The notes under the pieces were generated by a model. It saw nothing but the letters and a program-made list of their open reading frames with translations. It was not told where the DNA came from and searched no databases. Shown piece by piece: positions 3,920-52,019 of a stretch of DNA of 64,000 bases. This DNA is from Escherichia coli (lineage in GTDB: Bacteria; Pseudomonadota; Gammaproteobacteria; Enterobacterales; Enterobacteriaceae), in assembly GCF_024223415.1 (NCBI RefSeq), contig NZ_CP100500.1; one strand, 5' to 3'. The first letter of the stretch is position 1; every line of letters begins with the position of its first letter. The position numbers and the translations under genes were made by a program.

Positions 3920-4678
3920 TCAGAAAAGAGAAGATTGCTGTGGAATAGCCGGAACTGCTCCGATCTCTGGAAGCGTTTTACGTAAGTCTTCCCACAGGGT
4001 ATGTACCAGTTCCGGTGCCTGGGCAATGTCTGGCGTATGTAAAAAAAGATAAGGCGTAGTGGTCTGATGCCACTGCGCTAATTTCTGTAACCAGACCTGA
4101 AATAATTCCCGGTTTTGCGTCATATCATCACTACCGATAAAACGGATCAGCGGATTTGTCGCCGTCAGTACAGCATGTACCGGAACTTTAGGTTTTTTTC
4201 GTTGAGCGTCGCGAATAGCTTCACTGTGTGGACGTGCTGCATGAACCGGGCGGCTGTCTAAAATCACCCGATTAACGCCGCGCTGATGTAAACCGCGATT
4301 AAGCGTTTGTTCCTCTTCCCCTTTGGCGAAAAACTGTGGATGGCGGACTTCCACACCATAATTAAATTCGCCAGGGAGAGAATCGAGAAAATGCCAAAGC
4401 GCAGGCAGCTCCCGTGGGCCGAATGTGGCAGGCAGTTGCAGCCAGTATTGCCCAATGCGCGGAGCCAACGGTGACATGCGGGTCAAAAATTCAGTCACTA
4501 AATCATCGCAATGTCGTAATGCTGCCTGATGCGAAATGGTCGCCGGAAACTTAAAACAGAAGCGGAAGTCATCTGTGGTCTGTTCACGCCAGCGCAGGAC
4601 AACCTCGGGTTTCGGCAGGGCGTAAAGCGTGGTGTTGCCCTCCACGCAGTTAACATGACGGGTATTGAAGGCTAACAC
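3920..4678 (-). CDS. yecE: DUF72 protein YecE with 5' end replaced by prophage sequence
   Basis: Body of the protein reads as YecE; the first ~10 codons (MLAFNTRHVN) differ from my recollection of the K-12 N-terminus, and the ORF overlaps the 3' end of the integrase gene. Confidence 0.75.
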   Translation of the reverse strand: MLAFNTRHVNCVEGNTTLYALPKPEVVLRWREQTTDDFRFCFKFPATISHQAALRHCDDLVTEFLTRMSPLAPRIGQYWLQLPATFGPRELPALWHFLDSLPGEFNYGVEVRHPQFFAKGEEEQTLNRGLHQRGVNRVILDSRPVHAARPHSEAIRDAQRKKPKVPVHAVLTATNPLIRFIGSDDMTQNRELFQVWLQKLAQWHQTTTPYLFLHTPDIAQAPELVHTLWEDLRKTLPEIGAVPAIPQQSSLF

Positions 4679-4690
4679 ACTGATTTTAAT
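4640..4690. other. putative prophage attachment junction (attL) within 5' end of yecE
   Basis: Point where YecE-like sequence ends and the integrase C-terminus overlaps; exact core not determinable without the other junction. Confidence 0.4.
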
Positions 4691-5985
4691 AAGTTTCTTG
4701 TGTCACTTTGGTGACCATGGGACATCATTGGGACATAATCTGCCAGCTTCTGATTCAGCATTGCGATCTGTTCTGCATTACTGTCAGTCATCCATGCTCC
4801 GTATACATTGAACACCATCTGGGCACTTGCATGGCCCATCTGGCTGGCAATGAAGCTTGGGTTTGCTCCGGCAGATAATGACCAGCACGCATAAGTGTGT
4901 CGTGACTGGTATGCTTTCCGGTGCCTGATGCCCGCACGCTTAATGGCTGTTTCCCATGAGTCGCCAATAGAATCTACCTTGTAGATAAAACCGACCTGTT
5001 TGCTTTTTCTAACCACCTGGGGGTTAAATACGAAAGTACATTCATGGTTCACTGTACGTCCATATTCACGTAGTTGAACCTTGATGTGGTGCTGCTTACC
5101 CAGTCTTGTCATTTCAGCCTGATTTTTCAGGACACTGATAGCGGGCTGGATAAGATGCACAACCCTGTTTGTACTTGCTTCAGTTTTAGGTAGAGTGAAC
5201 TCACCGAGTTTCGTATAATTGCGCCTGATAGTAATTGTTCCTGCTTTCAGATCGATATCTTCCCAGGCCAGGGAGACCAGTTCACCATGACGCATTCCTG
5301 TGTACACAGCCAATGACCACAGGTTTTTCGTCTGCTGATGTCGGCAAGCATCTATCAGGCGAATAAATTCGTCACGAGTTAGCGGATCTGGCTCTGCCCT
5401 GGCTCTTTTAAGAGGCTTAATTCCCTGGAAGGGATTTGCTTCTAAGTAACCGTGATCTGCAGCAAACTGAAACATTCCAGCGATTGTCGTCATGTAATAA
5501 TTTACAGTAACGACGCTCCGTCCTTTTGCTGCTGCTTTGTTTTTCGTTGAATTCTGGTACCCGGTCAGCAAATCTTTCCTGATATACAGCAATTCCTCTT
5601 TAGTTACCGATGACACCAGTCTGCTGCCTCCAATTTTCGGAACCATCGTTCTTGCAACGGATTCATAGCGATTGAATGCATTTGCAGAGATCTCCATTCG
5701 TTTCAGATCCAGCCACTTTTCTTCAAGTTCCTTCACCGTAATTTCTTTTTTACTTACCCCAAAAGCCTGAAGGTTAGGGGAGTCAGGGAACTGTGCAGCA
5801 TAATCAAAGCTTCCTGTGCGGATGGCAAAACATACCGATGTCCGCAGTTCCCCGGCGATCTTCCTGTTCTTGGCAGTGTCAGGGACACCAAGATTTTCCC
5901 TGACACGTTTACCTTTAAAATTAAACCAGATGCGTAATGTGCCGCCGTGGTTTTCGACGCCTGTTGGATATTTGACTTTATCCAT
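4672..5985 (-). CDS. int: phage integrase (tyrosine recombinase)
   Basis: 437 aa; N-terminal arm-binding-like region and C-terminal catalytic domain with conserved R..H..R..Y context (RHTYACW). Confidence 0.9.
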   Translation of the reverse strand: MDKVKYPTGVENHGGTLRIWFNFKGKRVRENLGVPDTAKNRKIAGELRTSVCFAIRTGSFDYAAQFPDSPNLQAFGVSKKEITVKELEEKWLDLKRMEISANAFNRYESVARTMVPKIGGSRLVSSVTKEELLYIRKDLLTGYQNSTKNKAAAKGRSVVTVNYYMTTIAGMFQFAADHGYLEANPFQGIKPLKRARAEPDPLTRDEFIRLIDACRHQQTKNLWSLAVYTGMRHGELVSLAWEDIDLKAGTITIRRNYTKLGEFTLPKTEASTNRVVHLIQPAISVLKNQAEMTRLGKQHHIKVQLREYGRTVNHECTFVFNPQVVRKSKQVGFIYKVDSIGDSWETAIKRAGIRHRKAYQSRHTYACWSLSAGANPSFIASQMGHASAQMVFNVYGAWMTDSNAEQIAMLNQKLADYVPMMSHGHQSDTRNLLKSVC

Positions 5986-6040
5986 TGATACCTCCAGACG
6001 CCCAAGAGCGATACGAGCTTACATACTTCATGGCATTAAA

Positions 6041-6277
6041 TCACCCAGGTTGTTTGTTTTTCATTGAAGCGACCCAGGCATCTATTGCTTTTCTGTTATA
6101 CATACATTCACTGGAAGGCTTTGGATTACCGTCTGGTGATACGTGAATATACTCTCTTCCAACCATCCAGCATTCTTTCCGGGCCCGAAGAATTGTGCCT
6201 GGTTTGAGCCCGGTAATTGCGATTAGAACGCTTTCACAAACCCATTCATTGGGAGCCAGTTGAATCACATTGCCCAT
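6041..6277 (-). CDS. xis: putative excisionase
   Basis: 78 aa basic protein immediately upstream of int in the same orientation. Confidence 0.55.
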   Translation of the reverse strand: MGNVIQLAPNEWVCESVLIAITGLKPGTILRARKECWMVGREYIHVSPDGNPKPSSECMYNRKAIDAWVASMKNKQPG

Positions 6278-6435
6278 GCATTACCTCACACAACACTCAG
6301 CCCACGGCAGTGGCACCACACTTCAAACATTCGTTTCACAATTTCACGACAGTAGAAACCGTCAACATCTCGTGTCAGGTCATAGCGATTGCCGTAACGC
6401 TGGTGGACCCATTGTTCAAATGCTTTATTCATTCT

Positions 6436-6678
6436 TTACTTCCTTTTCATGGCCCGTAATTTTTTCAGATGAGTTTCCTGTTCTGTTTCTGCCAGAATTT
6501 GTCGGTATTCCTGATGATCGAGCCGTTCAAACGTTTCATTAAAATCGTTTATTTTTACCGACTGTGTTCGCCCATCCATTCTTCTGTACAACACGGTGTT
6601 ATTTATGCAGCGAATAATTTTTACCGGGTAACCGGCACTGTCGGTATACAGTTGTCCCTGATTAATCAAAGCGAACAT
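6436..6678 (-). CDS. hypothetical phage protein
   Basis: ORF 6436..6801, most likely starting at internal Met (MFALINQ...); no recognisable domain. Confidence 0.35.
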   Translation of the reverse strand: MFALINQGQLYTDSAGYPVKIIRCINNTVLYRRMDGRTQSVKINDFNETFERLDHQEYRQILAETEQETHLKKLRAMKRK

Positions 6679-6709
6679 TTTTTCTCCTGCTCTCTGAATA
6701 GTGAGAACT

Positions 6710-50699: not shown

Positions 50700-50760
50700 A
50701 AAAATGGTGGAGCTGGCGGGAGTTGAACCGGCGAGCCTTTCGGCTCCCCCATGCGCCCCA
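50700..50760 (-). other. fragment resembling the 3' end of ssrA (tmRNA); att-like remnant
   Basis: Minus strand reads ...ggagccgaaaggctcgccGGTTCAACTCCCGCCAGCTCCACCA, matching my recollection of the tmRNA 3' terminus; upstream part does not match ssrA; coordinates approximate. Confidence 0.5.
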
Positions 50761-50811
50761 CAATAATTCATATGTGCGCGTGCATACGAGAAAAAACACT
50801 TGTTATATCTG

Positions 50812-51421
50812 CTAAAGCTGCATCAGCCTTTCCACCAGTTGTTCTTTACGGGCAACGAGCCAGCCGTGTTGCTCCAGATAAAATTTAAACCGTTCCAGAG
50901 TGCATACCATCGCATCGGCGGGGACTTTTTCTGTGAACTCTACCTGACCGTGTTTATCAAAGTGGATCAGTAATGCGCATCCATCATTTGGGGTGGGTGA
51001 GTTTTGTGTTGCTGGTGGTTGTTTTTGGCTGAAATAACAGTCTTCCAGTTTTTCGAACACTTCCCATGCCTGATCGGTTTCGAGCATTTTGGCATGGCGG
51101 GCTGCGCCACGTTCTGTCCAGAGGATAAGGGAGCGGGCATTTTTACCAACTAACCCGATTGTTTCGGGTCTGTTCTTAAACTCGCGTAATTCGTTTTTTT
51201 TCAATTTTAAAGTAATGCTTTCCTACCACGAATCGCGTCGTGTTGTTCAGAAAGTTATCAGAAATGTTTTTGATTTTTGTTCCGTATAACTGCGCCAGAA
51301 GTTCAGTTGTAATAACGGGGACCTGGTTGTGGGTGATTGCAGGAAGAGTGTCGACAGAAATTTGAGTGGGCATAACGATAACTCCGTACATTTGAAAATT
51401 ATCGCCACCTTCAGGTTCCAA
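50812..51421 (-). pseudogene. Rha-family phage regulatory protein, apparently split into two overlapping frames
   Basis: ORF 51176..51421 (N-terminal part) and ORF 50812..51204 (C-terminal part) overlap in different frames; assignment to Rha family is tentative. Confidence 0.4.
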
Positions 51422-51439
51422 TCATCATGGTGGCGAACT

Positions 51440-51500
51440 GTGCGGGGTTGGAACTACCGGGTACGGAAACCGGCGAGCCTTTCGGCTCCCCCACACAGCC
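51440..51500 (-). repeat. second copy of the ~24-bp core shared with the ssrA-like fragment, in a tRNA-like context
   Basis: ccggcgagcctttcggctccccca occurs at ~50728 and ~51470 as a direct repeat flanking the Rha-like remnant; coordinates approximate. Confidence 0.45.
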
Positions 51501-51840
51501 CGCCATAAATCGCGAATGTGACTGTGCAAACGATATGAAAAAAGACGCGGGCGCGTCTCATATCGCTCCGTAAACATCCGGGGTTCCAATCCCGACGCCA
51601 GATTTTGCTGACGCGTTGGAAATATAGCCCCGGAGGATAAAAACTGTCAACGGGTAAAAAATTTCCGTTATCAGGAATGTATAAAATTAAAGCAATCGAT
51701 CAAAAAATCCTTTCTGCAAAACTAAAAAAGATTTCAATAAAATCAGGCAGTTAAAAACGCTGAAAAACGGTATAAAAAAGCATCTCAAAATCCTGTTTTT
51801 TCTTTCAGATACAATATCTTATTTGATTTTTTAAAACCTG

Positions 51841-51959
51841 CCAGTGTGGTACATGGATATCGATACCACCGCCAATTATAAACTGGGCGGTGCACAGCAA
51901 CATGATAGCGTACGCCTCGATCCGTGGGTGTTTATGTTCTCAGCAGGATATCGTTTTTA
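51841..51959 (+). pseudogene. ompW: 3'-terminal remnant of ompW (last ~38 codons)
   Basis: Translates to WYMDIDTTANYKLGGAQQHDSVRLDPWVFMFSAGYRF*, recognised as the OmpW C-terminus; no upstream ompW body in the window; coordinates approximate. Confidence 0.75.
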
Positions 51960-52019
51960 ATTCCGCACAAAAACGACCCCGTAATATACGGGGTCAATAA
52001 GGACATGGCATAAAGGGTA

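Follow-up and report, generated by a model that had tools for sequence, protein, structure and literature searches.

A prophage with one yecE end and one ompW end in Escherichia coli, a probable chimera at a junction of a large inversion

How can a lambda-like prophage be bounded by yecE on one side and by a remnant of ompW on the other, when a single integration makes both junctions in one target gene? This question is raised by a stretch of 64,000 nucleotides from Escherichia coli (assembly GCF_024223415.1, contig NZ_CP100500.1), called the window below, in which a prophage of about 47 kb occupies positions 4654-51841. Both flanks and both junctions were identified, each belonging to a different integration site, so that the element must be a chimera of a yecE-integrated and an ompW-integrated prophage, unless the contig itself is chimeric. 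With a probability of about three in four, we consider that it arose when two such prophages recombined by homology and thereby inverted the terminus region of the chromosome.

Two junctions from two integration sites

The features at the two ends of the prophage are, from left to right:

1..1555, plus strand: torZ, 3' part, cut by the window start (from flank match and gene map)
1720-2691, minus strand: cmoB
2688-3431, minus strand: cmoA
3472..3867, minus strand: yecN (placed by offset mapping from locus L001)
3920..4653, minus strand: yecE', the chromosomal 3' three-quarters of yecE
4646..4653: yecE attachment (att) core GCAGTTAA, the boundary between chromosome and phage on the integrase-proximal side
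4672-5985, minus strand: yecE-type tyrosine integrase, 437 amino acids
6044-6280, minus strand: excisionase
51842..51960, plus strand: 'ompW, the displaced original 3' end of ompW, last 39 codons and stop (TAA at 51958-51960)
52020..53337, minus strand: yciE (52020-52526), yciF (52572-53072) and yciG (53158-53337)
53718..60384, minus strand: trpA, trpB, trpCF, trpD, trpE and trpL, all full length
60522..63943, plus strand: rnm (yciV), yciO and yciQ

On the left side, window 1-4665 carries torZ, cmoB, cmoA, yecN and yecE with 99.9-100% identity to O78 strain 3 (CP084096.1), SCU-316, NCTC10444 (LR134092.1) and NCTC9112, and identity to the unoccupied yecE of O78 strain 3 ends at base 4653. In strain 08-00022 the 8 bases GCAGTTAA bound the intact yecE prophage on either side and are thus identified as the crossover core. 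The left junction is almost base for base the integrase-proximal junction of that prophage, and the integrase and the excisionase show 97% and 100% amino acid identity to its proteins. In the public assembly collection the same integrase protein is listed for 405 blocks, and all ten places shown have it beside yecE. The open reading frame (ORF) of yecE' runs into phage DNA to 4678/4690, and so does its counterpart in other yecE lysogens, which carries the annotation DUF72 protein. The complete integrase-proximal signature of a yecE prophage, namely yecE', the core GCAGTTAA and a yecE-type integrase, is therefore present.

On the right side, the phage end is followed by CAGTSTGGTACATGG... and then by the displaced original ompW 3' end. 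Intact ompW prophages in Ch1 and O78 strain 3 have an integrase-distal junction of this structure, and with the phage end, the displaced ompW remnant and yciE the window contains the whole integrase-distal signature of the ompW type. ompW prophages have been published with attL/R of about 121 bp (PMC8112680), which the right junction fits. The right flank is 99.8-100% identical to the same four strains that match the left one. The original prediction, made from the letters of the DNA, had the integrase abutting yecE with cmoA, cmoB and torZ beyond, and the far end abutting the last ~38 codons of ompW followed by yciE and the trp operon. The gene map and the junction at base 4653 bear out the former and the 39 codons found the latter, and the predicted span of 4640-51960 brackets the prophage correctly.

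The partner ends that each of these junctions would have in an intact prophage are absent. Neither the ompW 5' part nor the yecE 5' stub with yecD was found in the window, and the same holds for an ompW-type integrase and exonuclease, for a yecE-type distal arm and core and for an ompW-type proximal arm. Accordingly the window contains neither the integrase-distal yecE signature (phage arm, core, yecE 5' stub, yecD) nor the integrase-proximal ompW signature (restored full-length ompW beside a Rac-like integrase). There is also no discontinuity, gap or duplicated sequence within the window, and as no insertion sequence (IS) element is found in it, an IS-mediated rearrangement was ruled out.

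A comparison with intact prophages of both types gives the same picture. With the yecE prophages of 08-00022 (L004) and TUM1886 (L032) the element shares the integrase, the excisionase, the att core and the yecE' fusion ORF, and its early region shows 96-99% nucleotide identity over 230-13379, going down to 87% in the replication genes. In the TUM1886 yecE prophage also the late genes and the YadA/sigma/DinI cargo match the window up to 50,499. Where these prophages close with the distal arm, core, yecE 5' stub and yecD, the window has a 1.3-kb segment specific to ompW prophages, followed by 'ompW-yciE. With the intact ompW prophages of Ch1, F374, F1022, DG341-1, strain 135 and TUM1886 it shares the integrase-distal junction, and from 20,655 to 'ompW it matches Ch1 at 97-99%. 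These prophages start with a restored ompW, a Rac-like integrase, an excisionase, an exonuclease and kil, however, and none of these ompW-type features is present in the window.

A small observation concerns the left flank. Between torZ and cmoB (about 1584-1717) the window and some strains have a segment of ~130 bp that others lack, and the alignments to L006, L008, L012 and L015 break exactly at 1583/1718. As the left-flank query matches a median of 35 places per genome, this segment is probably a repeat of the REP/BIME type (repetitive extragenic palindrome/bacterial interspersed mosaic element) that is polymorphic at this site.

Substrate, crossover and competing explanations

In order to place the two flanks on the chromosome, both were aligned to reference genomes. 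They lie on opposite strands in all six complete genomes listed for both flanks and likewise in K-12, and in the four closest of the six they are 656-742 kb apart; in the window both are on the same strand at a distance of 47 kb. In K-12 MG1655 ompW is located at 1,314,020-1,314,658 (plus strand), yecE at 1,951,395-1,952,213 (plus strand) and dif at 1,590,750-1,590,777 (exact match to the 28-bp dif sequence), so that the two genes flank dif at distances of ~276 kb (ompW) and ~361 kb (yecE), a placement that is that of the K-12 map and not of the source genome. Thus the predicted distance of several hundred kb across the terminus and the inversion of the left flank relative to the right both hold, and none of the six genomes or K-12 has the two flanks on the same strand. 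The GC skew of the window was dominated by noise and gave no information.

In the K-12 frame an ompW prophage reads from integrase to tail and a yecE prophage from tail to integrase. Because the two are in inverted orientation, a crossover would invert the chromosome that separates them; a deletion was ruled out by this geometry, as the distal side of yecE is joined head-to-head to the terminus-proximal side of ompW.

The affinities of the two arms agree with two different parents. Window 230-17323 tracks the yecE prophage of 08-00022 at 87-99%, and window 20655-53747 tracks the ompW prophage of Ch1 at 97-99%. The left arm is also matched by draft contigs of yecE lysogens, of which L009-L011 match window 1-15985 at 99.3-99.6% without gaps, L013 matches 1-13385 at 99.8% and L016 (GCA_966212685.1) matches 5667-27068 at 99.94%. 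Such contigs end inside the phage, by their record coordinates L010 and L013 near ~20.3-20.8 kb and L016 near ~38 kb, which is consistent with a late region that is repeated within those genomes.

The change of affinity at 17.3-20.65 kb was considered as the crossover and rejected. This segment (DUF968, Q, a porin gene and two tRNAs) is part of a natural Q-porin-tRNA-lysis module, which in draft contigs (99.3-99.94%) directly continues the yecE-type early region, and it is also present in an mlrA-integrated prophage of GF60. Furthermore, the intact yecE prophage of TUM1886 matches window 26,191-50,499, including the tail fibre, DUF4376, YadA-like, sigma-like and DinI genes. From these alignments, the part diagnostic for yecE prophages would be only about 4.65-20.6 kb and the part diagnostic for ompW prophages only 50.5-51.84 kb. 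Because the interval 20655-50499 is found in prophages of both types, the crossover should lie within it, that is, within about 20.6-50.5 kb (~30 kb).

A substrate for such a crossover exists in nature. The complete genome of TUM1886 (NZ_CP128970.1) carries intact yecE and ompW prophages in the un-inverted arrangement, inverted to each other, ~730 kb apart and with the terminus between them. The yecE prophage (L032) at 2.235-2.281 Mb reads torZ...yecE', int ... DinI, yecE stub, yecD, and the ompW prophage (L033) at 3.006-3.056 Mb reads, on the other strand, yciE, 'ompW, DinI ... int, ompW. The pair shares inverted segments of 17,959 bp (97.3%), 4,245 bp (99.93%) and 1,298 bp (99.7%), ~23.5 kb in total, with ~8.8 kb free of differences. 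These repeats exceed those of at least 5 kb and at least 98% identity that bound inversions in O157:H7 (PMC8743559), and TUM1886 is therefore a ready-made substrate for the same inversion, although it stands here as a surrogate for the parental prophages of the source strain. As a peculiarity of its ompW prophage, IS1414 is inserted between the DinI-like and the sigma-like genes.

The following scenario would account for the window. The ancestral chromosome would have carried a lambda-like prophage in yecE on one replichore and a second in the 3' end of ompW on the other, the two being inverted relative to each other and having tens of kb of near-identical late (head, tail and cargo) genes in common. 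Homologous recombination in the shared late region, with RecA or perhaps a phage recombinase at work, would have swapped the arms and flipped a chromosome segment of ~640-740 kb spanning dif, and the window would be one of the two inversion junctions. The product would be a chimera with its integrase end on yecE'-yecN-cmoA-cmoB-torZ and its tail end on 'ompW-yciE-trp. A reciprocal chimera, reading ompW, ompW-type integrase ... tail, yecE 5' stub, yecD, would be expected at the other end of the inversion. The same recombination of a yecE-integrated with an ompW-integrated prophage had been put forward in the original prediction, and the junctions, the missing partner ends, the map relative to dif and the TUM1886 pair speak for it.

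Several points weigh against it. Only one of the two junctions lies within the 64-kb window and the reciprocal junction is a prediction; a single junction fits a simple inversion as well as a more complex rearrangement. No match to both halves was found among 5,426 complete E. coli genomes, and neither of the junctions, neither of the 25-kb halves nor the switch region has a full-length, near-identical match among them. For the YadA-like protein, J and the tail fibre no record of an exactly identical protein was found, and the integrase, helicase and sigma-like proteins are too widespread to point to one genome. The six genomes sampled with the same ompW right end (Ch1, TUM1886, F374, F1022, DG341-1 and strain 135) all have the normal arrangement, with ompW and then a Rac-like integrase at the left end. 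The yecE/ompW hybrid arrangement was not found in another genome, which refers to this sample and not to a systematic screen for the signature. Nor is the crossover localised: where the TUM1886 prophages disagree, the window resembles now the yecE and now the ompW copy, block by block, and between 26.2 and 34.5 kb informative sites are missing altogether. Finally, a 1-bp deletion in a G-run of the capsid gene hints at a long-read assembly with residual errors.

The last point leads to the question whether the join was made by the assembler. In this case separate yecE and ompW prophages would really be in the normal arrangement, and their arms would have been misjoined across the near-identical late-gene repeat. 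The size of that repeat is prone to misjoining, as homology between yecE and ompW prophages can exceed 20 kb, with ~8.8 kb identical within one genome. Single-base G-run deletions at different sites in the window and in the independently assembled Ch1 capsid gene suggest long-read error profiles, and the searches turned up no second genome with the arrangement. The assembly is of good quality, however, since the flanking genes are full length throughout, as are nearly all of the phage genes, the window is uninterrupted, and closure of the chromosome would need a second, reciprocal misjoin. Moreover, junctions of this kind are a common real event in E. coli, even in single-colony cultures (PMC8743559). 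We thus consider a chimeric join of this sort unlikely, but still worth reckoning with.

Quite improbable is a more complex history in which a third prophage took part, e.g. one inversion nested in or following another, or a translocation in the terminus region. The single junction in the window would allow it, and multi-step terminus inversions with ompW prophages are known from strains E473 and E471 (PMC8112680). The mosaic late region, as seen against the TUM1886 pair, and the similar late regions in prophages at other sites, e.g. mlrA, point in the same direction. Yet one crossover suffices for everything seen in the window, a mosaic is in any case to be expected when unrelated phages serve as reference, and both ends are clean, canonical att junctions.

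An integrase-mediated origin, with a yecE-type phage inside an ompW prophage at a captured attB that then recombined with the true yecE site, is scarcely credible and was rejected: many ompW prophages do carry a 21-bp yecE-derived attB used by yecE-type phages (PMC8112680) and the left junction is exactly at the att core, but the sole yecE att copy in the window is this left junction, which continues into 4.6 kb of genuine chromosome from yecE to torZ, a search allowing 3 mismatches found no further yecE-like core or arm in the window or in the Ch1 ompW prophage, so that no inner phage with yecE-like att at both ends is seen, the yecE-type distal arm is absent from the window, and the right part is not the predicted series of phage end, core and ompW prophage remnant.

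Gene content of the prophage

Between the two junctions the prophage has the following features:

6281..20600: early region of the yecE-prophage type, with a DUF5406 gene and SPFH (7110-7937)
10450-11142, minus strand: CI-like repressor
11273-11572, Cro-like; 11649-12494, KilA-N; also Ash (early region)
13789-14781, replication protein; 14783-15670, DnaC-like; 15667-17067, DnaB-like
17367-18362, DUF968; 18365-18802, Q antiterminator
18981-20087, minus strand: OmpC-like porin gene between Q and the tRNAs, putative pseudogene
20655..50499, plus strand: late region common to yecE-type and ompW-type prophages
20686..20839, plus strand: phage tRNA pair, anticodon CAT and tRNA-Lys (UUU)
22185-23182, lysis genes; 25628-28037, terminase, followed by portal, protease and D
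31753-32781: major capsid gene, frameshifted
Tail genes, with tape measure (36117-38696), J (41075-44983) and tail fibre (45042-46847)
46862-47437, DUF4376; 47876-49285, YadA-like; 49346-49801, sigma-like helix-turn-helix protein
50188-50436, minus strand: DinI-like
50500..51841: right-end segment, found in ompW prophages only and absent from the TUM1886 yecE prophage

Two of these genes carry lesions. Codon 25 of the porin gene, at the cleavage site of the signal peptide (...SSNAA*IYNKD...), is an in-frame TAA, and the same gene is intact (367-368 amino acids) in the near-identical contigs L016-L019, so this could be either a fresh pseudogene or a base error. In the capsid gene a 1-bp deletion near 32,652 (GGTGG to GGTG) shifts the frame at about codon 300. 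As the capsid gene of the Ch1 ompW prophage carries a different 1-bp deletion, in a G-run ~35 bp downstream of that in the window, these may be homopolymer-type long-read errors in both assemblies or independent decay. The difference also led us to reject the frameshift as a shared marker of ompW-prophage ancestry.

The first phage tRNA was called as tRNA-Met (CAT) by ARAGORN and is annotated as tRNA-Ile in relatives, where it is presumably lysidine-modified. The second one is tRNA-Lys (UUU) in the window, Ch1 and GF60, and its equivalent in the TUM1886 ompW prophage is annotated as tRNA-Arg. No stx gene was seen in the window, where the ORFs after Q and the tRNAs are the putative porin pseudogene and the lysis genes. 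A segment of ~520 bp at 23385-23903 with an ORF of 95 amino acids (23401-23688) is present in the window and in L016 and absent from the otherwise collinear prophages of Ch1 and GF60.

The YadA-like adhesin and the sigma-70-region-4-like gene (151 amino acids) form a two-gene module (47876-49801; loci L021-L026). The sigma-like protein was found in 5,466 blocks of the assembly collection, and the pair occurs at four different loci within one genome (GCA_964246605.1). Because it is found at prophage ends as well as beside unrelated chromosomal genes and IS elements, the module may be independently mobile. Between DinI and the ompW remnant lie fragments of an ORF6N/KilA-N antirepressor gene and an Ash-like gene (50974-51605, minus strand), which belong to the only segment specific to ompW prophages; the Ch1 equivalent of the ORF6N gene is annotated as frameshifted.

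Relation to known inversions and consequences

The phenomenon belongs to a well-characterised class, the prophage-bounded inversion across the terminus, and the window is a new instance and not a new kind. Such inversions in E. coli are documented in PMC8743559, PMC8112680, PMC8767318, PMC10132054 and PMC8456039. The literature searched contains ompW-ydfJ (PMC8112680), ydfJ-ttcA and ydfJ-dusA prophage inversions and an inversion inside a Stx2a (Shiga toxin 2a) prophage in ompW (yciD). The combination of yecE and ompW was not found described in the literature searched. Prophage-bounded rearrangements of O157:H7 are the subject of Iguchi et al. 2006, as cited in PMC8743559, and of Fitzgerald et al. 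2021 (PMC8743559); according to the latter these inversions arise spontaneously and create phenotypic and typing heterogeneity.

Like the O157:H7 cases, the inversion proposed here would span the terminus, with endpoints in lambdoid prophages on opposite replichores, long inverted homology and chimeric prophages as products. Unlike them, it is known from one junction alone, in a lineage nearest to O78 strain 3, SCU-316, NCTC10444 and NCTC9112 and without a visible stx gene. It also resembles the inversions of Shiga toxin-producing E. coli O145:H28 and O145:H25, which (PMC8112680; PMC8456039) have one endpoint at the ompW (yciD) prophage and a partner prophage across the terminus. In O145:H28 the partner is located at ydfJ and not at yecE (PMC8112680), and the passage on O145:H25 gives no partner site (PMC8456039). 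Furthermore, yecE-type phages in O145:H28 integrate inside ompW prophages via the captured attB, which is not the case in the window.

Precise excision of a prophage needs matched att cores. The chimera has a yecE-type integrase, excisionase and proximal att together with an ompW-type distal att, and because these two att sites belong to different integration systems, it would be unable to excise precisely by its own integrase and excisionase unless the inversion reverts. If the inversion is real, both chimeric prophages would have mismatched att sites and their cargo, in the window the YadA-like adhesin, the sigma-like regulator, DinI and the tRNA pair, would be fixed in place until then. The region from trp through yecD would have moved to the other replichore, and as the K-12 distances are slightly asymmetric (276 vs 361 kb), the position of dif with respect to the origin would change by about 85 kb. 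Genome curators should treat the join with care in synteny and typing analyses until it has long-read support.

The origin of the yecE-derived attB in ompW prophages has been raised as an open question (PMC8112680). A reversible inversion with mismatched att sites might be the kind of intermediate by which it was gained, since it would put yecE sequence beside ompW-prophage DNA and could so give rise to the captured attB that lets Stx and effector phages integrate inside ompW prophages, an idea that we regard as very doubtful. If real, the inversion of ~640-740 kb around the terminus would be an example, at two common integration hotspots, from outside the Shiga toxin lineages in which such inversions have mostly been described.

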